This document shows positions 14,230 to 64,000 of a stretch of DNA of 64,000 nucleotides, one piece after another. Source of the stretch: Candidatus Latescibacterota bacterium. Its GTDB lineage: Bacteria; Latescibacterota; UBA2968; GCA-2709665. The stretch's first letter is position 1, and each line of letters begins with the position of its first letter. Made by a program: the position numbers and the translations under genes. The notes beneath the pieces are model-generated. The model saw only the letters and a list, made by a program, of their open reading frames with translations, was not told the DNA's origin and made no database searches. The stretch spans positions 1,120,001 to 1,184,000 of the forward strand of contig OZ252100.1 of the NCBI GenBank assembly GCA_965248435.1, given 5' to 3'.

Positions 14230-14660
14230 GCAGTCAGGTCACGCTCTATGTGGATGGGGCCTCCAAAGGAAACCCTGGCCGGTCCGGAATTGGTGTGCGA
14301 ATCGAATCAAACGGCGAGCTGATCCTGGAATCTTCAGACTACATCGGCGAGACCACGAACAACTCCGCAGAATACCAGGCACTGATTCGCGGTCTTGAGA
14401 TGGCAAAGGAAGTCGGTGCAAGTCTCGTCGACGTCGTGTCCGACAGCGAGCTTATGGTAAAACAGTTGAATGGCCTCTATAGAGTTAAGACCCAGTCGCT
14501 TAAGCCACTATATGATAAGGCGATAAAACTGTCTGGCGGGTTTGATGGGTTCCGGATTCGGCACGTTGATCGATCGAAGAACCAGGAGGCCGACAGGCTG
14601 GCGAACGAGGGAATTCTAAAGGCAGCATTGGCGAGTGGGCCGGATGGTCGCGCCCGATAG
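14226..14660 (+). CDS. rnhA: Ribonuclease HI (RnhA/YpdQ-type)
   Basis: YVDGASKGNPG, TNNSAEY, SDSELMVKQ, NQEADRLAN; GTG start overlaps the upstream stop. Confidence 0.9.
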   Translation: MSSQVTLYVDGASKGNPGRSGIGVRIESNGELILESSDYIGETTNNSAEYQALIRGLEMAKEVGASLVDVVSDSELMVKQLNGLYRVKTQSLKPLYDKAIKLSGGFDGFRIRHVDRSKNQEADRLANEGILKAALASGPDGRAR

Positions 14661-15009
14661 GGTGAGGAAAGTCCGAGCTCCGAAGGGCAGGATGCTGGGT
14701 AACGCCCAGGCGGGGTAACCCGACGGAAAGTGCCACAGAGAATAGACCGCCAGCGAGCGGGACCGCAAGTCTCGCAGCGGGCAAGGGTGAAACGGCGGGG
14801 TAAGAGCCCACCGCGCCTCCCGGTGACGGGGGCGGCACGGCAAACCCCATCTGAAGCAAGGCCAAATAGGAGCGGAGAGGTGGCCCGCCTCGCTACAACG
14901 CTCGGGTTGGCCGCGTGAGGCATCGGGTAACCGATGCCCCAGATAAATGACCATCCATTCGGTCCTCATCCGGACCGAGGGACAGAACTCGGCTTACAGG
15001 CCCACTCGC
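14631..15009 (+). ncRNA. rnpB: RNase P RNA (type A)
   Basis: P1 helix gcgagtgggc/gcccactcgc; GAGGAAAGUCC, GGAAAGUGCCACAGA, GGGUGAAACGG, GGCAAACCCC and ACAGAACUCGGCUUA landmarks. Confidence 0.96.
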
Positions 15010-15074
15010 TTTTCAAACCGGCGGACTCCCCCATTCGGAATCCGCCGTTTTAACAACCGTGCGCAAGGAACACG

Positions 15075-51526: not shown

Positions 51527-52090
51527 AAGACACTCGTGTTTCTTGGATCCTTAAAGCTATTCCCCCACCTCACAACCCCCTGCCTTCGACGAGCGCACCG
51601 ACCGACCCCTCCTGGGTCGAGGTGGGTCACAATAGGGTTTCTGCCCAATCAGACCCACCCCTAGATCGCCGAAGGAGGGCACTTTAGTATTCGCACCAGA
51701 TGCTTTCCGGCGTGCCCCGGAGGGGCGGGGTGGGTCATATTGCGAGCACAAAAAACCATGCCTCCGGCAGCCAACTTTTCTTGTTCGCCCAAGAAAAGTT
51801 GGACAAAAGAAAGGCGCCGCTCAAACGCCGCGGAGGCTCGGGCCGCGGCACCTTACCCTCAGCGGAACAAACGATCACGGCAGGAGGGCCAAATCCTCAC
51901 CACGCGCTCACGATCACTGAGGAACCAAACCGCTGGGAGGAGAAAATTCACTCCTTGCAAGGTAAGTCGCACACCGCGGCCCTGATGGCATTGATCGATG
52001 CGTCACGTGAGATCCAAGACGGCTGCCAAGATGGCGAGTTTCAAAATTAGAGCCTGGAACCTTAACATTCGGCGAGGAAGCGAAAAGTAA

Positions 52091-54326: not shown

Positions 54327-54402
54327 GGGGCTGTAGCTCAGATGGGAGAGCGCATGAATGGCATTCATGAGGTCAGGGGTTCGATCCCCCTCAGCTCCAC
54401 CA
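54327..54402 (+). tRNA. tRNA-Ala(GGC)
   Basis: GGGGCTG TAGCTCAG...CATGA AT GGC AT TCATG...GGTTCGATCC...CAGCTCC A CCA; G3:U70 pair. Confidence 0.96.
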
Positions 54403-54450: not shown

Positions 54451-54585
54451 TATCAGAAAAAGTGACGATCTCGTGACAAAATCCCCGAAATCAAGAAATC
54501 TTATGTGAGGATATGTCAGCTTTGATGCCCATATATAATGTATGGCGAGCGGAGAGGTCTGAAATTCAGAAGTTTGGAGAAGTTA

Positions 54586-55284
54586 ATGGCTTCCTTTAGC
54601 ACATACACAATTTATGCGCGTTTCTTTCCTGCCATCATTTCAGCTCTGCCGCTTGCTGTCTTATGGTTCTTTCTATCAGACCTCAAGGAGTTATCTAATC
54701 TGGTATCGTTCGTGCTGCAGTTTAAATTCCTCGGGGAATTATCCTTCTCCCTTGTCTTCCTTTACTTATATGCACAGATAATTAGAACAACATCAAAGTT
54801 CTTAGAAGAACGATACTTCACAAAAGCGAAAGGATTTCCAACAACATATCTGATGAGCTATGAGAATAGGGTCTTTTCTGAATCCTACAAAGACAAATAC
54901 AGAGAACGAATTGCTTCTTGTTTCAATCTTGAACTACTTGACGCAGATAAAGAAAAAGAGGAACCTGAAGAAGCGAAAAAACGATTAGATGAAGTAGTGA
55001 AGCATGTAATTCTCAAGGTTGGGGATGGGAAGCTTGTAGGAAAGCACAATATCTGGTACGGTTTCTTTAGAAATCTCATAGGTGGTTCTTTTTATTCCAC
55101 GACATTTTGTCTGCTGAACATCGGAGTAGGATATTTCCTGATAAATAATCCAATTCTTGTCATTCCATCAGGCGTAATCCTGATTCTCAATGCAACTATT
55201 CTCTTCTTCCGCAAAAAGATCCTCATTCAAAATGGGGAGGCCTATGCGAAGCAGCTAATTGCAGAGTTTATGTCCCAAGGTTAA
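54586..55284 (+). CDS. Uncharacterised 4-TM membrane protein
   Basis: Two hydrophobic hairpins flanking a soluble loop; ARFFPA and NIWYGFFRNL motifs; RBS ggaga. Confidence 0.75.
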   Translation: MASFSTYTIYARFFPAIISALPLAVLWFFLSDLKELSNLVSFVLQFKFLGELSFSLVFLYLYAQIIRTTSKFLEERYFTKAKGFPTTYLMSYENRVFSESYKDKYRERIASCFNLELLDADKEKEEPEEAKKRLDEVVKHVILKVGDGKLVGKHNIWYGFFRNLIGGSFYSTTFCLLNIGVGYFLINNPILVIPSGVILILNATILFFRKKILIQNGEAYAKQLIAEFMSQG

Positions 55285-56246
55285 ATGCTTATTAACTGCT
55301 TCGCTCTTCTTTGAGCAATCTTCTTTCGAGTAGCCCTTTGAAACGAAAGTATATTTGGCGGAATTGAAATCCTCTGCACGATCGCTTCATCTTCGACCTC
55401 TACGAAGATTGAAGTGTTCTTATCCTTTGTGGATACACTATGTGATTTCTCGTTGTCACCTTCAATCAGAAATCCGTTTGAGAATTCTGATTTGCTGTAG
55501 CTGCTGTCAACATCGTCATCTCCACTTCGTGCAGGAATAACAAAGAGATCCGGTTTGCCCAAGACATCTATAATTTTCTTAGTGAATCCGTTTTTATGGC
55601 CGTGATGTGATGTGATAAAGAAGTTGGTTCCTGAGGCGGCTTCCACAAACCTCTCATCCTCAAGAAGCTTTTCCCATCCACTGACTTGAAGATCCCCAGG
55701 AAAGAGAAACTTGACATCGTTGTGCTCGATGACAGTGACAATGCTGGTATTGTTAACATACTCGTTGTCTTCGGAAGATACTTCTTCAACTTGGCTTTTG
55801 GTTAAGCTTTTATGAAAGAGCTTAAACCCCCAATTTGGCTCCTCTGCATCTTGGCTATATCTTTCTTGCCATTTGAGGTATTTATTTAGATTCTCCAGAC
55901 TTTTCCTTTCCCTTGGGTTCTGAGTGCTTGTAGATGGCTGCGGTTGTATCTTGGTCAGAACGTGTTTGCATCTCTGCACTATTCCTGGTTCTTGCTCCCT
56001 CTTTCTGACCAGCTCTCCGATATCGTTAAGGTGGTCAGCGTGAGGATGGGTCAATACAAATTTCGCAATCTTCCTGGGCCATCGACCATTTTTACGCACG
56101 TAAGGCGTAATGATTCCTATTTGCCGAGTATATTTTACAGGAGAGAAGTCTTCTCTTGCTCCGCAGTCAATCATCAAACCATACCCATTAGGGCTTATGA
56201 TGAATGAGCAGAAACCATGTTGAACATTAAAAACAAGAACCTTCAC
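55281..56246 (-). CDS. ComEC/Rec2-type MBL-fold hydrolase (putative nuclease/phosphodiesterase)
   Basis: FNVQHG, MIDCG, LTHPHADH, NNTSIV, FPGD, SHHG; RBS aggagg. Confidence 0.85.
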   Translation of the reverse strand: MKVLVFNVQHGFCSFIISPNGYGLMIDCGAREDFSPVKYTRQIGIITPYVRKNGRWPRKIAKFVLTHPHADHLNDIGELVRKREQEPGIVQRCKHVLTKIQPQPSTSTQNPRERKSLENLNKYLKWQERYSQDAEEPNWGFKLFHKSLTKSQVEEVSSEDNEYVNNTSIVTVIEHNDVKFLFPGDLQVSGWEKLLEDERFVEAASGTNFFITSHHGHKNGFTKKIIDVLGKPDLFVIPARSGDDDVDSSYSKSEFSNGFLIEGDNEKSHSVSTKDKNTSIFVEVEDEAIVQRISIPPNILSFQRATRKKIAQRRAKQLISI

Positions 56247-56284: not shown

Positions 56285-56313
56285 AAAAAACCCCTCTCCT
56301 TGAGGGAGAGGGG
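56285..56313 (-). terminator. Intrinsic terminator downstream of integrase
   Basis: Minus strand cccctctcc...ggagagggg followed by T6. Confidence 0.65.
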
Positions 56314-56507: not shown

Positions 56508-57632
56508 CTATTCTATATCCTCTATCCCAATGTCCATCAGCTCAGCGAACTTCCGCATATCTAACGCATTGGAATGATCATAGACGTCCATTACCATCCT
56601 GGGACTAGTGTGGCTTAGCAGGGCTGCTATGGCCTGAGCAGGAGCTCCTTTGGAACTTAGATATGATGAGTAAGTGTGACGAAGAGAATGGAGGGTATAC
56701 TTCTCAGGCAACTCAGCTTTGTTGCGATATCTTCTAAAGGCCTGTGTGACAGAATTCGGTCTTAAAGGCCTGGAAGAATCAGTTTCTGACTTGAACACAT
56801 ACTCCCCAGGCTTTATATCCATCCTTTGGAATACCTTGGCAAGCGGCGGAATAATAGGAATGTCAACAATAACAGGATGATCTTTTCTCTTGGTGATTTT
56901 GACCTTCATCGCCATCTGCTCAAGGTCTATGTCTTCGGATTTTAGCCCGAGTATTTCATTCCTCCTTCCGCCAGTATACAAAACGCCTAGAACGTAATTC
57001 TCAAATGTCCTATTTCCTGCCTTTCTAACTTCTTCCAGCAATTTACTTACTTCATCAGCGCTCATATCATTGTCTTGCCTCTTGATCTGGTTTGGCGTAG
57101 GAACTGAAACTAGCAAGAATGGATTATGTAGTAGGTATCCTGACTTCACAGCCCTGTTCAAAGCTGCATTGACTGAATTATGGTAAATCGCCTGAGTTGC
57201 CCTACTCCTTCCTTCCCTATCCAAAGACTCTCGCCATCGCCTTACATCATCTTCCACAAGATCTTCTAAATAAGCGTCCCCAATCTTGCTGATTACGCTC
57301 TTGAAGGCATTCCTAGTCCCAATCTTTGTATTTTCAGAGTGATTGAATTCATAATCCTGTCTGCGCTGATACTCATCCAAGAATTCTGATAGCCTTTTCC
57401 TCCTCCTTGTTGCTTCTGCCCTCTTATGCAGCATATCAATTGAAAGCCTGCCAACTCTTTCAATCTCACCTCTTTTCGCCTGGGAGAATCTCTTTCGGAA
57501 TAATCGCATCCACTCATCTGCCTCGTCCTTGTCGTCAGTCCCAGTGTCAATTCTGTAGCGCCTGTTGTCCACATCAGTGTAATCCAAAGTATATTTCCCA
57601 TCCAGATCCTTTCGTTTTCTAAGGCTTGCCAT
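56508..57632 (-). CDS. Tyrosine recombinase/integrase
   Basis: N-terminal arm-binding-like segment, YTGGRRNE (R), HSLRH, LLSH, DVY catalytic set intact. Confidence 0.93.
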   Translation of the reverse strand: MASLRKRKDLDGKYTLDYTDVDNRRYRIDTGTDDKDEADEWMRLFRKRFSQAKRGEIERVGRLSIDMLHKRAEATRRRKRLSEFLDEYQRRQDYEFNHSENTKIGTRNAFKSVISKIGDAYLEDLVEDDVRRWRESLDREGRSRATQAIYHNSVNAALNRAVKSGYLLHNPFLLVSVPTPNQIKRQDNDMSADEVSKLLEEVRKAGNRTFENYVLGVLYTGGRRNEILGLKSEDIDLEQMAMKVKITKRKDHPVIVDIPIIPPLAKVFQRMDIKPGEYVFKSETDSSRPLRPNSVTQAFRRYRNKAELPEKYTLHSLRHTYSSYLSSKGAPAQAIAALLSHTSPRMVMDVYDHSNALDMRKFAELMDIGIEDIE

Positions 57633-57642
57633 TTTTGTTGTG

Positions 57643-57840
57643 CTAATCCTTCTTTGGGTTTTGATGCCCACTTGCCATCCATTCATCTATCAATACGCGT
57701 GAAAATCTTGTAAGGTTTGAGCCAGGCAGTTTTATGTAAGGAATTCTCTTTTTAGAGACATATTGGCGTACAGTGTTCGGAGAGATCTTTATGTATCTCG
57801 CGACACCATCTACATCCATATAGGTCTGGTCCTCATCCAT
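57643..57840 (-). CDS. Excisionase-like HTH protein
   Basis: MDVDGVARYIKISPNTVRQYVSKKRIPYIK...RF...IDEW; immediately upstream of the integrase. Confidence 0.88.
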   Translation of the reverse strand: MDEDQTYMDVDGVARYIKISPNTVRQYVSKKRIPYIKLPGSNLTRFSRVLIDEWMASGHQNPKKD

Positions 57841-58003
57841 TCCTCCAGAACCTTTCATAGCCTGTTCCTGATTAAGGTTTGTGCGGGTATTAGTGTAGGA
57901 CCATCTGCAAACTGAAAAGAGAAAACCACACTACTCTAGAAGTGAAGCTGAGCGGTGTGGTTTTTCCTACGACCGTCTAACTTAGTTAGCTAAGGCTTAG
58001 AGA

Positions 58004-58168
58004 TTAGGGCTTTCTCTCATTCCTATCTATAGGTTCCAGCTTTCTGGTCCTATGCTCTTCAATAATCTTTGGAATTCCGCTCTGGAATTTTATGGAAATG
58101 GAGCCCCAAAAGTCTTTGCCAACGTTTTCCTGGAGATACTGAATCACTGGATTGAAGCGGCTAGTCAT
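58004..58168 (-). CDS. Small protein, DUF2292/YezD-like
   Basis: RBS ggaggga; FWGSISIKFQSGIPKIIEEHRTRK pattern. Confidence 0.6.
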   Translation of the reverse strand: MTSRFNPVIQYLQENVGKDFWGSISIKFQSGIPKIIEEHRTRKLEPIDRNERKP

Positions 58169-58217
58169 ATTCCCTCCTAGTTTGAGTTCATTGAGTAGCT
58201 TATTCATACGCCACCAT

Positions 58218-60188
58218 TTAAGGATCAAATTTCTTCTTGAAGAATTCTGCTATGGCAAAGAACTTAACTTTAGCTAGACGATCTCCGAGTTGTTTTGCTG
58301 CCTTCTTCTCAACCTTGGTTTTCTCTGCTGGGTCTGGAAAGACAAACCAGGTGAAATCGTGATAAGCTGAAACTTGCTCAAAGCTGAGGTGTGAGATTAC
58401 ATACTCCAGGCAATAAGTTTTCCCATCCAGAACCGCGGTTAAATCCCGCTCAGCTCCTGTAAGGGTATCGTGCCTTTTTGTTTTTGCTCCGCGCTGCTTT
58501 AGCCATCTTTCCATTACTCTAATACCTGCTTCGTGCTCTACTTTCCCTCTACCCATATCTAAATCATAGCCAGCTCCGAAAGCCTCTGCTCGCTTCACGC
58601 CTCTTGGGGTTAGAGCGAGTAGCTTGGGCGAGCCAGGCGCTTTATAGCCGATTTCCGTGATTAGGCCCTTGGCTTTGAGGCCATCCTTGGCTCGGGTGAA
58701 GGTAGGAGCAGAGGAGATTCGTGGTTTACATCTCTCTCGATAAATTCCAACTTGTCGAAAACCTTCCTCAGCAATCTTCGTATGCACATAGGCTTCATTC
58801 TCGGTCAGTTCACCTTCTCTCGATTTTGGTGCTTCTGAAGGAGCTGAGAGTGAGACTTTTTCCTGCATATAGATTACATCTTCATACAGCTCCTCGACGT
58901 TCTCGTTCCTAGCTTCAGCCTCGATGTTGTGGGCAGGTATCTGGATGGGAAACGCCGGTATTGGACCTGTTATCTTGACAATCGCCTGCCCTGTTTCCAA
59001 GGACATCAAGGAGGTGGTATCTGGAGATGAAATTTGCTTTTCGTTGAGAGTCATAACACCCCCAAGAAAATGTCCTTCTGTTCCATCCCCAGGATTAAGC
59101 GCAAACTTCACTCTAGCGTCTGAGCAAACTTCGCTAACTACTTCGCTCGCTCTCTGAGACACTACAACTAAACCTATCTCCGCTTCTCTGATTTGAGATA
59201 CAAGTGTGCTTATGACAGGAGCGGATTCGAGTTTCTTTTCTTTATTCTTGCTGAAAACAGCCGCTTGAGCTTCCTCAACTATGACGAGATTCTGTAGGCT
59301 GTCCAATTTTTTGTTAAAAAGTCGGTATGCAAAAAGCCAGATAAGCAGAATTTCTGTCAGGAAGCTCGCGAACTCCGCAATCATTCCTCGTGTATCTATG
59401 ATAATGTTCTTGTTGAGGAGCTGGGCTTCACAGCCTCGTCTTACTGAGGCATTGGGGAAACCGTGATTCAGGTGTAGAATTCTATTTCGAAGAGTGCTCC
59501 AGTAGCCAAAATCCTTGCTGTATGTTTTAGGGCGGGAGGATTCTATCTGCTGAACCAGCTCCGGCAGCGTGGGGCAAGTCTCAGGCTTTCCATTCCATTT
59601 CTTGTAAAGAGTGCGGAGGTTGTCGAGAAATCCCGTTTTGAAAACCACAAGTCCACCCATACGGTCCGTGAAGCTTTCTGCTATGTAGTTGGCGTAATCT
59701 TCCCAGCTAACTCTAGGCGGAGGGTTAAGTGGGTTGAAGAGAAATTTTCGCCAGTGAATGTGTATGAATTGCCTTCCCCACTTTCCGCCTTTGGGGTCGA
59801 ATCCTGTGACTTTGACATCATCCTGGACTGCTCCTTGGGCTATGATCTTGGCTAAGTGAGTTTTACCCAGTCCGGTGGCTCCGAATATTCCGATGTGCTG
59901 GTTGGCATAGCTTTTCTTGAGATTGAATATCAAGTCCGGTCTGTGAATCAGCGGCGCAATTTCCCAATCTCCTGCAAGCTGCTCCTTTGTAGGGTAGGTG
60001 AAGGGAGAATCCAGAAGGAATTCAAACGGTAAAGATGACTGAAGACTGGTTCTGAGATGAGATGCCAGACCTTCGTCCCAGGAATAGCTCAATGAACGCA
60101 GCACGGCCTGGGTATCGGACCGGTTTACTCTGCCCGCCAGCTTCGCCAAGTTGTAAAGTTCAATCAGAGGGTGGTCTAAGGGGCTCAT
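58218..60188 (-). CDS. HerA/VirB4/FtsK-superfamily ATPase with C-terminal wHTH and nuclease-like domain
   Basis: HIGIFGATGLGKT, FDPKG, LVIVEEAQ, IREAEIGLVVVSQ; LKAKGLI...LALTPRG; EH...RD...CLEY. Confidence 0.8.
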   Translation of the reverse strand: MSPLDHPLIELYNLAKLAGRVNRSDTQAVLRSLSYSWDEGLASHLRTSLQSSLPFEFLLDSPFTYPTKEQLAGDWEIAPLIHRPDLIFNLKKSYANQHIGIFGATGLGKTHLAKIIAQGAVQDDVKVTGFDPKGGKWGRQFIHIHWRKFLFNPLNPPPRVSWEDYANYIAESFTDRMGGLVVFKTGFLDNLRTLYKKWNGKPETCPTLPELVQQIESSRPKTYSKDFGYWSTLRNRILHLNHGFPNASVRRGCEAQLLNKNIIIDTRGMIAEFASFLTEILLIWLFAYRLFNKKLDSLQNLVIVEEAQAAVFSKNKEKKLESAPVISTLVSQIREAEIGLVVVSQRASEVVSEVCSDARVKFALNPGDGTEGHFLGGVMTLNEKQISSPDTTSLMSLETGQAIVKITGPIPAFPIQIPAHNIEAEARNENVEELYEDVIYMQEKVSLSAPSEAPKSREGELTENEAYVHTKIAEEGFRQVGIYRERCKPRISSAPTFTRAKDGLKAKGLITEIGYKAPGSPKLLALTPRGVKRAEAFGAGYDLDMGRGKVEHEAGIRVMERWLKQRGAKTKRHDTLTGAERDLTAVLDGKTYCLEYVISHLSFEQVSAYHDFTWFVFPDPAEKTKVEKKAAKQLGDRLAKVKFFAIAEFFKKKFDP

Positions 60189-60636
60189 TCTTTGGCAATC
60201 CCACGAGGGCCTTTAGAAGATTCAGAACCGCTGAAACAAGACAAGTAACCACTAACAAAACCCTGGCTCTGCGGCCATGAGATTTGCAGTAGAATTCTTC
60301 ACCTATCTGAATGGAGTTATGCGAGGCAACAGGGGATCTACACTTCAGACAGAATTTGAGATGAGTCTCGCATACGCTTGCACCATACTTATCCACCGCC
60401 ACGAAACTTTCAAGGTCTGTCTTGACGCACCCGCACCCAAGCCAAAAGTGGCCTCTGCTATTCACAGTGACGGGAACATCATCGACAATGGCTGTCTCCT
60501 CAGACTCCGTGAATAATTCAGCGGTAGAGCTGCCCACGCGAACTGGTCGTGAGATGGTTTTTTTCGCACCTATGGGTCGGTCCGTGTCTTGCTGAAGAAT
60601 CCCATTCTTAAGTTCAGCCAAAAGTTCATCATCCAT
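60160..60636 (-). CDS. Cys/His-rich (Zn-binding) protein with C-terminal hydrophobic anchor
   Basis: CGC, CETH, CLKC, CKSH; hydrophobic tail; coupled junctions on both sides. Confidence 0.7.
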   Translation of the reverse strand: MDDELLAELKNGILQQDTDRPIGAKKTISRPVRVGSSTAELFTESEETAIVDDVPVTVNSRGHFWLGCGCVKTDLESFVAVDKYGASVCETHLKFCLKCRSPVASHNSIQIGEEFYCKSHGRRARVLLVVTCLVSAVLNLLKALVGLPKNEPLRPPSD

Positions 60637-61001
60637 TAAAGTGCTCCTCTGAAAAATCTTTCTGCATAGTACCCTATAGCGACGCCAAGAAGGACTCCAA
60701 GAACTCGGTTAATTTGGTCTGGTATATTCTCGGTGGCTCTGACCACGAGTTTTCCCAGGAAGAACAGCGCAACACCAAGGATCGAGATTGTGAGCGCTAT
60801 GACAGTGAGATTGGCCTGCTTAACTGTAAGCGAGCTGAACAGGAACGGAGCCAAGACAGGATAAATTTGCATTGGAAATTGTAGAAAGGCGACGAGGCTT
60901 ATGGCGCCAAAGGCCAGAAAAATCCACCCTCCCAAATGGATGGCCACTCCAATCAGAGCCCCTACACCCATAGACAATGCGGTCCATACTTCAAATCCCA
61001 T
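60636..61001 (-). CDS. Small membrane protein (CvpA-like pattern)
   Basis: Mostly hydrophobic; INRVLGVLLG resembles the CvpA motif. Confidence 0.65.
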   Translation of the reverse strand: MGFEVWTALSMGVGALIGVAIHLGGWIFLAFGAISLVAFLQFPMQIYPVLAPFLFSSLTVKQANLTVIALTISILGVALFFLGKLVVRATENIPDQINRVLGVLLGVAIGYYAERFFRGAL

Positions 61002-61002
61002 T

Positions 61003-61755
61003 TTAGTCCTTACTTGGTTTGAAGGGAGGCAGTGTTCTCGGAATGCCGGATTGAGTTGTCAGATCGGTCGCCAGTTTTGAACTAATGGGGTCGAGCATTG
61101 AGAACGAAGCAACACTTGACCAGAAGTGGCTCCAAGAGCTCTTCATCTTAGTCCAATTGGTAGCTGCCCAAGGAATGAACAAGAATTTCACTTCAAGATT
61201 CTGGCTAAATGTGATTAGCTCACGAGGTGCCAAAAACGTTGTCCTGCCATCTCCTGTCGTCTGCAAATCCGAATACAGGAATAGAGATTGGTGCTCGTAG
61301 CTTGAGTTCGCCATCAGAACCGATATGAAGGCGAGAAGGGTATGAAGTTGGGTGGTGCCTCCGGCTCTCTGCACTTGGTTCTGTTCAAGCCAGGCAATAC
61401 ACTCGGCTTTAATTTTCTCTGTCTGCTCCCAGATCTGTAGCAGCAGGTGTTGGCTACGCTTCCACTCGGAAAATGATTCATAGTCTTTTTGCCATAGTTC
61501 TGGGTTAGGACTGGGGCAAATCTTATCGACCTTCACCAGGTCCAGACTGAATGAACCCAGATTCAAAATCGTAATCCTGTCACCCGGTGAGAGCTGGGGC
61601 AGCAGCTCCCGCATCATCAGCTCATCACCAAGCTTGAGATAAACAAGTGAGTAGGACTCTGTGAGATCCCGCACAATGACATAGTGCGTTTGAGCTAGTG
61701 CTATGCGAGGCGTCAGCACGGTTAAGACCGCAAGGGTAAAGATTCGGCATTTCAT
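61003..61755 (-). CDS. Exported protein, degenerate vWA-like
   Basis: Signal peptide (ALA-Q); VIVRDLTES, GGTT, LFLYSDL resemble MIDAS elements. Confidence 0.6.
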   Translation of the reverse strand: MKCRIFTLAVLTVLTPRIALAQTHYVIVRDLTESYSLVYLKLGDELMMRELLPQLSPGDRITILNLGSFSLDLVKVDKICPSPNPELWQKDYESFSEWKRSQHLLLQIWEQTEKIKAECIAWLEQNQVQRAGGTTQLHTLLAFISVLMANSSYEHQSLFLYSDLQTTGDGRTTFLAPRELITFSQNLEVKFLFIPWAATNWTKMKSSWSHFWSSVASFSMLDPISSKLATDLTTQSGIPRTLPPFKPSKD

Positions 61756-62910
61756 CTAATCATCCTTGTGAGAAGGTCTGTTTGAGAACAAGTCCACTAA
61801 GCCTTGGTAACTGCCGTTTGAGAAAGGGTTGGAATTGTCTTTGAATTTCTGTTTTGTCTTCTTTCTCACGAGCTGAATGAGGTCAATGGCGATGCGCTTA
61901 ATCTCCCTGCGTGTGTCGCTCATCCATCTAAGCTGACGCACCACTTTCCGCTGGATTACGCCCAGTCCTTTATTTACGGTTTTGTATTGGTGGGAACGTT
62001 TGATCTTGAGGAGTTTGGCCTCAGCTTGATGGTGTAGTGTCTGGAGGTATTCTCGCTGTTGGCGCTGCGTTTCCACGATTATCCTAGTGTGTTTTAGCTG
62101 GTCCATCTTTTGTTTAATATCCAACTGCACTAAGATTCGCTTCCAGTTCTCGTAGCGGTAAGTTTTAAATCGTCGCGGCAGCTCAGGCAACTTGGCGCAT
62201 ATTGTGATGAACTGGTCTGCTATGTTTTTGAAGAGAAGCGCGATTCTCGCTGATTTGAGAAGCCATACAAGTGCGTAGACCAGATAGAGAGGTGAGAAGA
62301 GAACCAACCAGAGGCGGGCAAGACCGCCACGTCCCAAAAGATGCAGACTCACGTAGCTACAGAAAAACTCTGTTCCAGAAATCATAGCTACCCACATTGC
62401 AGCCGCTATCGCCTGCGTCGAGGCCGTGTCTGATGTGCTGAACGAAAGCTGCTCGTTTGTGGCGTGATAAGTGAGCATAATAATGGTAGAAGTTAGAACG
62501 ATATAGAGGCTACAAGCGATCACTCTGATGTATTGTTTTTCAACAGAATGAAGCGAGAGCGCGAGGAAAAAGCCCAACATCGCGGTTGAGAGGATTATCT
62601 CAGGGCCGAATATTTCAGTAGAGAACAAGTAGGGGATTTGATCTTTAATTAGATTGAAGATGGCTCTGACCGCGCTGATGCTGATGTAAAAGCCGAGCAA
62701 ACCCAGAAGTGCGTTGGCTGGGGATGGTAAGGAGTCCTGCCGAGTCCAGTTGAGGAAAGGCTCTGAGATGTGCTTGAGGCCTCGGAGCAGTGTCTCCAGG
62801 AGGAGTTCCCAGTTCGTGTAGGTGATCTCCACGCAGTTCTTCACATTCCTGGGATAGAAGATGCTGATGAAGACAGCGGCTGTGAAAGTGATGAGTAAGG
62901 CGAAGACCAT
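61756..62910 (-). CDS. Multi-TM protein with basic coiled-coil C-terminus
   Basis: About 6 hydrophobic segments then a Q/K/R-rich helix; RBS aaaggag. Confidence 0.7.
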   Translation of the reverse strand: MVFALLITFTAAVFISIFYPRNVKNCVEITYTNWELLLETLLRGLKHISEPFLNWTRQDSLPSPANALLGLLGFYISISAVRAIFNLIKDQIPYLFSTEIFGPEIILSTAMLGFFLALSLHSVEKQYIRVIACSLYIVLTSTIIMLTYHATNEQLSFSTSDTASTQAIAAAMWVAMISGTEFFCSYVSLHLLGRGGLARLWLVLFSPLYLVYALVWLLKSARIALLFKNIADQFITICAKLPELPRRFKTYRYENWKRILVQLDIKQKMDQLKHTRIIVETQRQQREYLQTLHHQAEAKLLKIKRSHQYKTVNKGLGVIQRKVVRQLRWMSDTRREIKRIAIDLIQLVRKKTKQKFKDNSNPFSNGSYQGLVDLFSNRPSHKDD

Positions 62911-62928
62911 TTGGTTACTCCTTTCTGT

Positions 62929-63330
62929 CTATTCGGGCAAAAGAGTTAGCTGGATTCCCTGTGACCAACACCAAGCCCCAAAGCCAGCGAAGATTGCTAT
63001 TGAAACAACACAGAGCACAAAGATGTAGTCTTCGGCATTTGGAATATTCAGCACTTCCTGTCTGATTTTGTATCGGATGCTTTCCGAAAGACAGGCGAGA
63101 CCTAACAAAATGGTGATAGTGAGATGGAGTGATGCGGTGATGAGCATAATGAGTGGCGGTCCGATTTGATGAAGGCTCCAGGTGATGTTTCTCCACTCCT
63201 CCAGTATTTCCTCAGCCTCTTTCCCAGGAGCAGAATCTACGGCCTTGAAGAAGAGCATCGCGAAGATGAACAAGGCGCTGCTAATTCCGAAGTTTCTTCC
63301 CAGCCATTTAAGCCAGATCATTTTCCACAT
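62929..63330 (-). CDS. Small membrane protein (~3 TM)
   Basis: RBS aaggaaggag before ATG 63330; hydrophobic segments. Confidence 0.65.
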   Translation of the reverse strand: MWKMIWLKWLGRNFGISSALFIFAMLFFKAVDSAPGKEAEEILEEWRNITWSLHQIGPPLIMLITASLHLTITILLGLACLSESIRYKIRQEVLNIPNAEDYIFVLCVVSIAIFAGFGAWCWSQGIQLTLLPE

Positions 63331-63340
63331 CTCCTTCCTT

Positions 63341-63751
63341 TTAATAATTCCGATACTCTCTATACTCCCAGCCGTCGCTGTCGCACGTGCGGCACTCGTA
63401 ACCTTTGTAGTTCCCAGAGCCGCCACACCGCCTACAGCTTATTCTCATCCGCTTGGGGAAACTGGACCTGATCTCGAACGACTCTCTGCTGTTTGGTCCA
63501 GTGTTTACAAGCATGTTCATTCGATCGATCGTGTCCTGTATGTCTTCGTCCTGCCACCCATTTTTCTTCCCGTCGATTTTCCACTGATCGAGGCGAGTAG
63601 CACCCCTGCCTGGATTGGTTTTCTCGTAACACTCTTCGCACAATTCAGCTTTGCAGTAGGGCTCTGGTTCGCCGTGAACTTCCCAAAACTTCCTGTTATC
63701 AACCCAATCCACGATTGCTCCGCACTGGAGACAATTGTATTGGCGCGACAT
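63341..63751 (-). CDS. Zinc-finger protein with DnaJ-like CxxCxGxG motif
   Basis: CLQC, C...CEEC, CRRCGGSG, CRTCDSDG; RBS ggaaggaga. Confidence 0.7.
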   Translation of the reverse strand: MSRQYNCLQCGAIVDWVDNRKFWEVHGEPEPYCKAELCEECYEKTNPGRGATRLDQWKIDGKKNGWQDEDIQDTIDRMNMLVNTGPNSRESFEIRSSFPKRMRISCRRCGGSGNYKGYECRTCDSDGWEYREYRNY

Positions 63752-63808
63752 TTTGATTTCTCCTTCCTGAGCCAACCACCGCGTGGTATATTTTGGGGCC
63801 GGAATGTG

Positions 63809-64000
63809 TCACGCCCTTTCTTGGTTGATGTAGAATCTTCTGTAGTATTCGAGAACCAGCTTATGGCATTTCTCCCCATCGGAGAATCTGGCATCGAAAA
63901 AGTCTCGAAGTCTGCATCGAAGGGAATCTATCTCCTCCGCTTCCGGCTCGGACTCTGCATCGAGGTATAAGCTGGTGAAGTGAATCAGAACAGCGGTGCG
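63809..64000 (-). CDS. 3' part of a hypothetical gene truncated by the window edge
   Basis: Open frame from 64000 to TGA at 63809 (...HKLVLEYYRRFYINQERA*), co-oriented with the operon. Confidence 0.5.
   Translation of the reverse strand, partial: RTAVLIHFTSLYLDAESEPEAEEIDSLRCRLRDFFDARFSDGEKCHKLVLEYYRRFYINQERA

Follow-up and report, generated by a model that had tools for sequence, protein, structure and literature searches.

A recombinase-linked ATPase with winged-helix and nuclease-like domains in a putative integrative element of a Latescibacterota genome

Results

Organization of the operon

The window analyzed here is a stretch of 64,000 nucleotides (nt) from a Candidatus Latescibacterota bacterium (positions 1120001-1184000 of contig C1, accession OZ252100.1, of the genome designated G000; coordinates with the prefix L002 are converted to window coordinates by adding 54000). 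Its right-hand end is occupied by an operon in which the gene for a 656-amino acid (aa) ATPase carrying winged-helix and nuclease-like domains is preceded by genes for membrane, exported and Zn-binding proteins and followed by those for a small protein, an excisionase and an integrase. This operon, the family of its ATPase and the putative integrative element to which it belongs (element 1) are described below. The operon is a minus-strand run of at least 10 abutting, co-oriented open reading frames (ORFs) at window 56508-64000 that extends upstream past the window end, where it goes on with ORFs of 116 aa and 78 aa. Consecutive genes are separated by gaps or overlaps of 0-29 nt (29 nt is the overlap between zn158 and the start of the ATPase gene), the exception being 145 nt ahead of xis, and the order of transcription is zn144, tm165, tm384, exp250, tm121, zn158, ATPase, small protein, xis and int. 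The tightly packed operon ending in xis-int proposed in an initial annotation is thus confirmed. Transmembrane (TM) segments and Cys residues were counted by Kyte-Doolittle hydropathy and a regular-expression scan. The features of the run are:

63809-64000, minus strand: 3′ part of a further co-oriented ORF of 116 aa, reaching window-equivalent position 64159
63341-63775, minus strand: zn144, soluble Zn-ribbon protein of 144 aa with four CxxC motifs, two of them of the DnaJ CxxCxGxG type
62929-63426, minus strand: ORF of tm165, membrane protein of about 133-165 aa (start probably at about 63330) with three TM or hydrophobic segments
61756-62910, minus strand: tm384, membrane protein of 384 aa with five TM segments and a charged C-terminal half
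61003-61755, minus strand: exp250, exported protein of 250 aa, possibly vWA-like, with a signal-peptide-like N-terminus
60636-61001, minus strand: tm121, small polytopic membrane protein of 121 aa with three to four TM segments
60160-60636, minus strand: zn158, Cys-rich protein of 158 aa with seven Cys and a C-terminal TM helix
58218-60188, minus strand: ATPase-winged helix-nuclease-like protein of 656 aa, the central gene, assigned by family profile, model and column counts
58004-58168, minus strand: small soluble protein, 54 aa from its probable start at M21 (ORF open from 58228, 74 aa)
57643-57858, minus strand: xis, excisionase-family helix-turn-helix protein of 71 aa (HTH_17, 2.7e-10)
56508-57686, minus strand: int, tyrosine integrase of 392 aa with an Xer-like catalytic domain and a SAM-like N-domain
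56291-56313, minus strand: strong intrinsic-terminator-like hairpin shortly after int, with nine pairs, seven of them G-C, and a T-run behind it; likely the end of the transcription unit

The labels given to the last two genes hold. The xis product passes the curated models HTH_17 (40.8 bits, cut-off 27) and TIGR01764 excisionase (33.2 bits, cut-off 28.8), and it has a mad1-like match as well, which at 34.9 bits stays under the cut-off of 80. The int product matches Pfam Phage_integrase (3.5e-23, 82.7 bits, cut-off 27.1) and PHROG_1 integrase (3.9e-60); its NCBIfam matches, which are XerA/XerC/XerD-like, are all under their own cut-offs. Other names proposed initially found no such backing. 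Neither tm121, called CvpA-like, nor the small protein, called DUF2292-like, matched any family in Pfam, NCBIfam or PHROGs at E≤0.1-0.001. The vWA-like label of exp250 stays a lead: the protein lies near VWFA clusters in the ESM Atlas (score 0.91 on language-model features) and a DxTxS motif can be read in its sequence, Pfam contains no family for it, a phmmer search of the PDB gave nothing below E 0.17, and the single-sequence fold is too poor for interpretation (predicted local distance difference test, pLDDT, 34.8). The sole family match of tm384 was DotZ, sub-threshold in Pfam (0.012), and the ESM Atlas returned no usable match for it. The match of zn144 to Pfam DnaJ_CXXCXGXG (0.0053) is also under the cut-off.

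A few minor observations concern the same genes. A 262-aa ORF at window 63182-63970 on the plus strand, opposite zn144 and the gene that precedes it in the operon, has no family match and is probably not a gene. Further upstream in the operon, a 218-aa protein (L002:11047-11703) has a C-terminal region with a J-domain-like HPD motif (PHROG matches on residues 178-216 only); this protein and zn144 may form a split DnaJ-like co-chaperone pair carried by the element. Just upstream of zn144 (L002:9855-10715, window 63855 onward), the assembly graph fragments into short unitigs in two of the four sequencing runs of the source sample and the remaining two show one unbroken 19-kb contig, which suggests minor sequence variants in the population. 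In addition, an exact word of 13-14 nt (TTTCCCATCCAGA) occurs three times within 1.35 kb, at window 57594 and 58419 in direct and 58940 in inverted orientation. The copies fall in the int/xis overlap and in the ATPase gene and could be a protein-binding site, with doubtful significance, since chance alone should yield about two pairs of identical 13-mers in this 11-kb stretch.

Domains and conserved residues of the ATPase

The ATPase, the one informative gene product of the operon, was modeled with AlphaFold2 from a 39-member alignment (pLDDT 87.4). The model starts with an N-terminal helical bundle (aa 1-58), has a disordered linker between the core and the winged helix, and includes three domains:

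58911-60023, minus strand: P-loop translocase core, aa 56-426, with Walker A at G103-T110 and Walker B at E305-E306
58569-58817, minus strand: MarR-like winged-helix domain, aa 458-540, from structure and profile matches
58239-58550, minus strand: C-terminal alpha-beta-beta-beta-(beta)-alpha-beta domain, about aa 547-650, PD-(D/E)xK-like, from the secondary structure of the model

All structural matches listed by VIA-align for the full-length model fall on the ATPase and winged helix-turn-helix (wHTH) domains. The core was closest to DndH/DptH-C (Z 31.7), the VirB4 C-domain (Z 30.4), HerA (Z 27.2) and TrwB (Z 25.9), with Sir2-HerA and HerA-DUF4297 as other leading matches and lower scores for STIV B204 (Z 17.5), TcpA (Z 16.3) and FtsK (Z 15.7). 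The family profile ranked PDB entries in a comparable manner, HerA-type proteins (1e-27) coming ahead of VirB4-like proteins (1.7e-12), coupling proteins (8e-8) and FtsK (1.8e-7). The window ATPase matched Pfam DUF87 at 2.8e-7; among the 39 members this family was found in 37, FtsK_SpoIIIE in 7 and HTH_24 in one, and no Pfam model covers the C-terminal half of the window protein. The winged helix superimposed on MarR chains with Z 11-12 and a root mean square deviation of 1.3-2.1 Å over 72-76 residues, and the profile recovered MarR regulators at 5.6e-5. A winged helix behind the motor is also present in FtsK-gamma and TraB. The window ATPase belongs to the FtsK-HerA superfamily, and its initial description as HerA/VirB4-like is borne out by a core of that superfamily and a DNA-binding winged helix seen by both profile and structure.

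The residues expected of an active motor are largely retained among the 39 relatives, which share 18-25% identity: G108 and K109 are present in all of them, E306 and R334 in 36 each, and Q345 is also conserved. The C-terminal domain has comparably conserved columns, H552 in 38 of the 39 and both D582 and E595 in every one. The topology of this domain and its invariant D582 and E595 fit a PD-(D/E)xK core. The position two residues after E595 lacks the lysine of the ExK motif: the window ATPase has V there, and most relatives have E, A or S. Matches to known families were weak, Cas4 by profile on aa 534-610 (1.7e-3) and PDDEXK_9 in one of the 39 members. On the basis of the model, we consider the domain PD-(D/E)xK-like and a putative nuclease.

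Curated NCBIfam models scored the window ATPase far below their cut-offs, the best name being CedD (45.4 bits, cut-off 600), with helicase_HerA at 17.1 bits (cut-off 970). HerA proper, the partner of NurA, was rejected on this score, on the helical nature of aa 1-58 and because no NurA family was found among the neighbors. The N-terminus of HerA is a HAS barrel; a barrel of this type is not seen in the model, which has the helical bundle instead. VirB4 and a type IV secretion system (T4SS) were rejected because VirB4_CagE did not match at E≤0.01 and the island contains no T4SS or relaxase Pfam family; as judged from the model, the likeness to the VirB4 C-domain is at the level of the fold only. 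Identity with the Ced ATPases CedD or CedB was rejected on the CedD score and the lack of a TM segment, leaving a domain-level likeness. A predicted complex of the ATPase with zn158 scored 0.10, the mark being 0.32.

Distribution and genetic contexts of the ATPase family

An exhaustive HMMER search of 1.84 billion representatives, clustered at 50%, found 677 proteins at E≤1e-3, 221 at E≤1e-10 and 12 at E≤1e-30. Many members are 640-700 aa long and align end to end with 24-30% identity. The family occurs in bacteria and archaea, and two of the ten members looked up are full-length proteins of archaeal metagenome-assembled genomes named ‘helicase HerA-like’. Within the phylum, clear members are present in six of 168 genomes (G000, G037, G067, G070, G073 and G157). 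Single-query approaches were less productive. A word-index search of 5.8 billion proteins with the window ATPase returned only itself, searches for related loci in genome, metagenome and viral contigs (IMG/VR with the window ATPase as query) returned nothing, and P0008 as query gave its own 2.8-kb contig as the sole locus. The family also exists in a split form, an ATPase gene and a wHTH-nuclease gene that overlap by 4 nt or are separated by 3 nt (L045, region 2 of G000, G037). Such fused and split occurrence is the usual sequence signature of two functional parts working together, as these domains may do.

Ten contexts with at least 5 kb of flanking DNA, selected through the ATPase, were compared; L046 and L047 duplicate each other in a single genome, and three contigs no longer than 3 kb were set aside. 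A recombinase is located within 3 kb of the ATPase in nine contexts (50 nt to 2.6 kb), the tenth being a C-terminal fragment, and in eight of these nine both genes are co-oriented. The recombinases belong to two tyrosine-integrase lineages and, in one case, to the large serine recombinases. The wide co-occurrence is therefore that of ATPase and recombinase, and not that of ATPase and membrane proteins. In L045, the place upstream of the split ATPase that corresponds to zn158 is taken by a 161-aa protein with two CxxC motifs, which has no significant BLAST similarity to zn158. The cargo of the contexts is mostly of defense type (KwaB, TIR, OLD, MmeI-like, NACHT/HEAT) or of anti-restriction type (ArdC-N, DUF2958, RadC). 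RadC, DUF2958, DUF6876 and ArdC-N, which are typical of DNA entering new cells, are found in these elements and, in L044, directly after the ATPase.

A second collinear element in the same genome

A second low-GC element, at 5.607-5.630 Mb of C1 in G000, has its parts in the same order as the window element:

1: serine recombinase
2: paralogue of the small protein, 59-63% identity, at the equivalent position
3: split family ATPase (E 7.5e-57 to the profile)
4: three small ORFs (small Zn/TM proteins), one with a C-terminal TM segment
5: tm121 homologue, 121 aa, 32% identity over its full length (E 9e-13)
6: ThiF-family gene and others
7: weakly tm165-like TM protein, 156 aa (E 6e-4, pairwise)
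8: M48, DUF6876 and RadC genes
9: homologues of the 144-aa and 151-aa proteins
10: integrase with 40% identity to int-B of the island
11: ATPase with 55% and 49% identity to ATPase-B of the island, split by a 1.2-kb insert

The comparison suggests a unit of 22-28 kb that carries one recombinase-ATPase pair at either end. The window ATPase shows no BLAST similarity to its positional counterpart, though their neighbors are similar. The type-B ATPase of the second element (L012:11189-14658; C1 5607189-5610658) is broken exactly at residue ~451 by the insert of ~1.2 kb, which has a higher GC content (0.53) and a 417-aa ORF without Pfam or NCBIfam match; it may be an insertion sequence, an intron or another kind of insert. 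The idea that the ThiF gene represents a PRTRC system was rejected, as NCBIfam gave no support.

No accessory gene of the module is better conserved than that of the small protein, yet a search of the word index recovered only itself and its in-genome paralogue, and its profile hit only the window's own genome among the 168 of the phylum. The same index returned only itself for exp250. These searches of the large collection covered two accessory proteins, exp250 and the small protein. Recurrence was limited to tm121, the small protein and, weakly, tm165, solely in the second element of G000, and the expectation that the genes of the operon would co-occur elsewhere largely fails for the membrane genes.

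The genomic island and its boundaries

54327-54402, plus strand: tRNA-Ala(ggc), identified with ARAGORN and Rfam

Directly past this gene the GC content drops from 0.62 to 0.43 and then stays low. The initial placement of the operon on a tRNA-Ala element holds in that the foreign low-GC DNA starts at the tRNA; int, however, is 2.1 kb away, with another gene pair in between. This pair (window 54538-56246) consists of a 4-TM protein (248 aa, plus strand) and an MBL-fold protein (321 aa, minus strand); the latter matches the PADLOC candidate defense family PDC-M48B (7.7e-32) and, weakly, Avs1a and 6A-MBL. Both proteins have distant homologues (24-25% identity) in G001, a genome of the same genus, 7-10 kb from its tRNA-Ala. 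The tRNA-Ala is a hotspot and a candidate attachment site of the element. In G001 the tRNA-Ala is followed by 16.4 kb of unrelated DNA and, since synteny with G000 resumes only at G000 1278772, the variable region of G000 is a composite of ~104 kb.

The rest of the island includes a NACHT/HEAT protein, a methylase-like gene, DUF2958, RadC, a second integrase with a second family ATPase, two-component regulators, SIR2, a nonribosomal peptide synthetase and transposases. The NACHT/HEAT protein (L002:13348-16728; C1 1187348-1190728; 1126 aa) combines an AAA_16/NACHT-like P-loop domain with HEAT repeats (PADLOC HEAT-ARM_XIII, 1.1e-11), and in G157 a homologous gene immediately precedes those of an integrase and a family ATPase (L043:6008-12358). 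The second pair (L003:6930-10450; C1 1200930-1204450) consists of the 421-aa tyrosine integrase int-B and, after 60 nt, the 731-aa ATPase-B, which has 26% identity to the window ATPase; the type-B pair has nearer relatives in other genomes (29-35% identity).

The initial annotation had noticed no capsid, terminase, tail, relaxase or VirB gene in the part of the operon then visible, with which Pfam and PHROGs agree. Extending the inspection to the ~104-kb island revealed no standard T4SS or phage family: T4SS, relaxase, capsid and terminase families were not found across the island (Pfam) or among the element-1 ORFs (PHROGs), tail and VirB families were absent from the window part and the rest of the island (Pfam; PHROGs on element-1 ORFs only), and no replication gene was recognized in element 1 by Pfam, NCBIfam or PHROGs.

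Discussion

Comparison with known systems

Integrative elements that lack a relaxase and encode a single ATPase of the FtsK-HerA type are already known. Among experimentally studied systems, ICETh1 of Thermus is the nearest analogue found. It is a tRNA-integrated low-GC island in which a XerC-type integrase lies beside an operon for a NurA-like nuclease, a restriction enzyme and TdtA, a HerA-like, membrane-associated hexamer required for DNA donation; transfer falls by 3-5 orders of magnitude in nuclease mutants (PMC5365140). The window element is similar in being a low-GC island at a tRNA, in its Xer-type integrase (392 aa in both), in an operon where an ATPase resembling HerA occurs together with a nuclease or nuclease-like domain, and in the absence of relaxase and T4SS, and TdtA is a soluble-type protein found at the membrane. 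The Thermus element differs in its separate NurA-like nuclease, in the type IIG restriction enzyme and methylase that accompany it, and in having neither a wHTH fusion nor a set of small membrane and Zn proteins. The likeness is architectural, and an equivalent function of the window operon would be an extrapolation from it.

The actinomycete integrative and conjugative elements (AICEs; see PMC3218068, PMC3429521) use an FtsK-like TraB, whose C-terminal wHTH reads clt repeats, together with small Spd membrane proteins. Their general logic is comparable: int-xis beside a single hexameric translocase with a C-terminal wHTH, small hydrophobic proteins, transfer of double-stranded DNA and no relaxase. 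The window ATPase, in contrast, has no Pfam FtsK_SpoIIIE match, falls on the HerA/VirB4 side by profile and has an additional nuclease-like domain; no clt-like repeats were found and no RepSA/RepAM-type gene was recognized in the window element, and its host is not an actinomycete as judged from the genome context. In the archaeal Ced system, the membrane proteins CedA, CedA1 and CedA2 act with the HerA/VirB4-like ATPases CedB and CedD to move DNA without a relaxase (PMC11868833). A HerA/VirB4-clade ATPase and small polytopic membrane proteins are common to both, and the window operon may share the relaxase-free mode of DNA movement. However, CedB and CedD have their own TM segment and a VirB4-like N-domain where the window ATPase has the helical bundle and no TM segment, and the Ced system is chromosomal, imports DNA and has no integrase linkage.

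The HerA-nuclease modules (HerA-NurA, Sir2-HerA, DUF4297-HerA, DptH, MAD7-MAD8) also couple an ATPase of the same clade to a nuclease; the present family likewise has fused and split forms, and its structural and profile matches to these modules are strong. They differ in that the nuclease domain of the window protein is PD-(D/E)xK-like and placed behind a wHTH and in that its family is systematically adjacent to recombinases, and the named HerA and defense models score far below their cut-offs on the window ATPase. Finally, arCOG00280, ‘HerA-like helicase’, is listed among the commonest genes of the archaeal integrated ‘dark matter’ islands, its function being left open (PMC4158269). The resemblance, which is one of description only, is the enrichment of HerA-like ATPases beside integrases; the accessible text gives no wHTH and nuclease architecture (PMC4158269).

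A possible role in relaxase-free DNA export

We tentatively favor a reading that is plausible short of being probable, by analogy with these systems: the operon would encode a DNA translocase/nuclease of the element, co-expressed with excision, tethered to lineage-specific membrane partners and used for relaxase-free DNA export. In this model the operon would be the recombinase-proximal core of an integrative element without relaxase or T4SS, and its central protein would join a DNA translocase of the hexamer type, akin to HerA, VirB4, DptH and TrwB, to a winged helix that reads sequence and a PD-(D/E)xK-like nuclease. Because it is transcribed together with xis and int, the ATPase would be made when the element excises. 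The protein would then recognize and cut the DNA of the element, or neighboring DNA, and pump double-stranded DNA out of the donor. The Cys-rich TM anchor zn158, the small polytopic proteins and the exported, possibly vWA-like protein would provide an envelope tether and contact between cells, and uptake would be left to the recipient, as in the ‘transjugation’ of Thermus. Export or transfer is favored because a translocase is joined to DNA-reading and nuclease-like domains, because of its linkage to excision and because analogues exist. The initial proposal of a transfer module is upheld to the extent that the ATPase forms an operon with xis-int on foreign DNA, and it is weakened by the fact that the membrane genes are not conserved partners.

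Several findings weigh against this reading. The Walker B motif is D-E in 33 of the 39 relatives and E-E, as in the window ATPase, in six. The ATPase has no TM segment, its only hydrophobic stretch (aa 269-287) being a core helix in the model. Multi-TM genes occur in the gene run of the ATPase in only three of nine contexts (the window, region 2 of G000 and L045), and no relatives of the membrane and Zn proteins of the window were found outside its own genome in the searches made. In G067, an int-B-like integrase has no family ATPase on its 13.6-kb contig. Regarding mobility, the search for the rest of the element and its tRNA-Ala repeat succeeded in tracing the island over ~104 kb and gave no tRNA repeat: there is no exact tRNA 3′-end repeat of at least 15 nt within 200 kb and no fuzzy tRNA-derived repeat within 115 kb downstream, and on the int side the best repeats by blastn-short were 13-14 nt long. 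Neither were clt-like or iteron-like repeat arrays found near the ATPase gene. No excision junction was seen in the contigs of four sequencing runs of one sample, which break inside the tRNA (a sequence common to many organisms) and whose depths are not copy numbers; no RNA run was listed. By sequence search the ends of the element were thus not located, and its mobility is putative. Furthermore, the ATPase core is also closest to defense ATPases (DptH, Sir2-HerA, DUF4297-HerA; PADLOC mad8, 2.4e-10) and the island is rich in defense genes. The conserved part of the operon is explained equally well by an ATPase-nuclease defense module or a replication helicase.

Alternative explanations

The main alternative, somewhat unlikely and yet to be taken seriously, is a defense or exclusion module located in an integrase-adjacent cargo hotspot, a known type of site for defense genes. 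The ATPase-nuclease, fused or split, would sense and degrade invading DNA much as HerA-nuclease and MAD7-MAD8 modules do, and the fast-evolving membrane proteins would be sensors or effectors. Besides the mad8 match, which reaches 1.1e-21 for the paralogue of the window ATPase, and the structural likeness to DndH/DptH-C, Sir2-HerA and HerA-DUF4297, the module would be in suitable company: a PDC-M48B-like MBL pair, NACHT/HEAT, a methyltransferase and SIR2 among the neighbors and KwaB, TIR, OLD and MmeI-type genes in the contexts of its relatives. The patchy distribution (6/168 phylum genomes), with several paralogues in one genome, is of the same kind. In addition, MAD7-MAD8 is described as an ATPase-nuclease module of the MADS defense system (PMC13662399), and orphan membrane genes are typical of variable defense loci (PMC4158269). 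The eight-gene MADS system itself (mad1-mad8) was rejected: only mad8-like, mad1-like (3.2e-5) and mad2-like (6e-7) proteins were found, the latter two spread over 15 kb, and none of mad3-7 among the 35 proteins scanned. Also against a defense role, the ATPase is co-oriented and nearly contiguous with the recombinase in eight of nine contexts and shares a transcription unit with xis-int in the window, and the same family is found beside both recombinases of both G000 elements, where a hotspot would vary; this last argument is weak as the contexts were selected through the ATPase. The idea of a replication initiator-helicase of the excised element is quite improbable. Its wHTH would bind the origin, the nuclease would nick or cut, the HerA-type ring would unwind and the membrane genes would be cargo, a division of labor that suits the ATPase-wHTH-nuclease architecture and the lack of any other recognized replication gene in element 1. 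Its logic would resemble that of satellite helicases with origin-binding proteins and of initiators that unite a nuclease with a helicase. Many integrative satellites keep replication modules beside int/xis. Yet no iteron-like or origin-like repeat array lies near the ATPase gene, two such ATPases per element, one at each recombinase, would be odd for an initiator, and FtsK-HerA ATPases are not known to act as replicative helicases.

The pairing with recombinases also invites the thought of a recombination helper, a wHTH translocase that would activate or direct the neighboring recombinase or resolve and process junctions. The recombinase is the one conserved partner of the family (9/10 contexts), each G000 element has two pairs, the integrases are Xer-like, and FtsK-gamma is reported to activate XerD (PMC3130261). 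This role is nevertheless very unlikely: the partners span a serine recombinase and two distant tyrosine-integrase lineages, the FtsK-Xer model leaves no place for a nuclease domain, and the int-B-like gene of G067 has no family ATPase on its 13.6-kb contig. Scarcely credible is a provirus of a tailless, membrane-containing virus with the ATPase as an FtsK-HerA-type packaging enzyme and the small TM proteins in the virion membrane. The packaging NTPase B204 of STIV does match, by profile (1.6e-6) as well as by structure (Z 17.5), small membrane proteins are many, and a PHROG ‘terminase large subunit’ matches at 3.2e-9, though confined to the Walker A region. However, Pfam and PHROGs turned up neither a capsid nor any other virion family, the ATPase is three times as large as such packaging enzymes and has the wHTH and nuclease-like domains in addition, and the IMG/VR query with the window ATPase found no relative.

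Novelty and significance

Three things appear to be undescribed: the present family with its fusion of ATPase, wHTH and nuclease, the occurrence of such a protein with a recombinase at either end of an element, and the membrane operon of orphan genes. Literature searches turned up no account of the ATPase-wHTH-nuclease architecture, the nearest being the arCOG00280 listing (PMC4158269). A broader interpretation of the export reading, which we regard as clearly unlikely, is that of a new class of integrative elements of bacteria and archaea that would move themselves without relaxase, T4SS or capsid, with a recombinase paired at each end to a HerA/VirB4-clade ATPase-wHTH-nuclease, fused or split. 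The latter would recognize, cut and pump the double-stranded DNA of the element and, in this lineage, would dock on a bespoke set of small inner-membrane, Zn and exported proteins serving as the export route. The ATPase family is a concrete, testable lead, and the membrane ‘machine’, with a presumptive function, is limited to a single genome. How most genomic islands are transferred is not known. If the family were the DNA-handling engine of a class of integrative elements, it would join actinomycete TraB and Thermus TdtA as a third route that needs no relaxase, and many ‘cryptic’ islands could then be tested for mobility. If it were a defense module instead, it would represent a new fused HerA-type ATPase-nuclease architecture. 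The membrane half of the operon consists of orphan sequences: among 5.8 billion proteins, no relatives beyond their own genome were found for the two accessory proteins searched.

Additional features of the window

Two features of the window lie outside the island. A stretch of ~95 nt at window ~51750-51870, upstream of a gene for a 665-aa protein, has dozens of copies with 80-90% identity in G001, G002, G003 and G007 and looks like a small dispersed repeat of the host's bacterial family, either a miniature inverted-repeat transposable element or a repeat of the repetitive extragenic palindromic (REP) type. An ordinary bacterial RNase P RNA of class A (303 bits) is located at window 14632-15012, beside tRNA-Glu and tRNA-Val.

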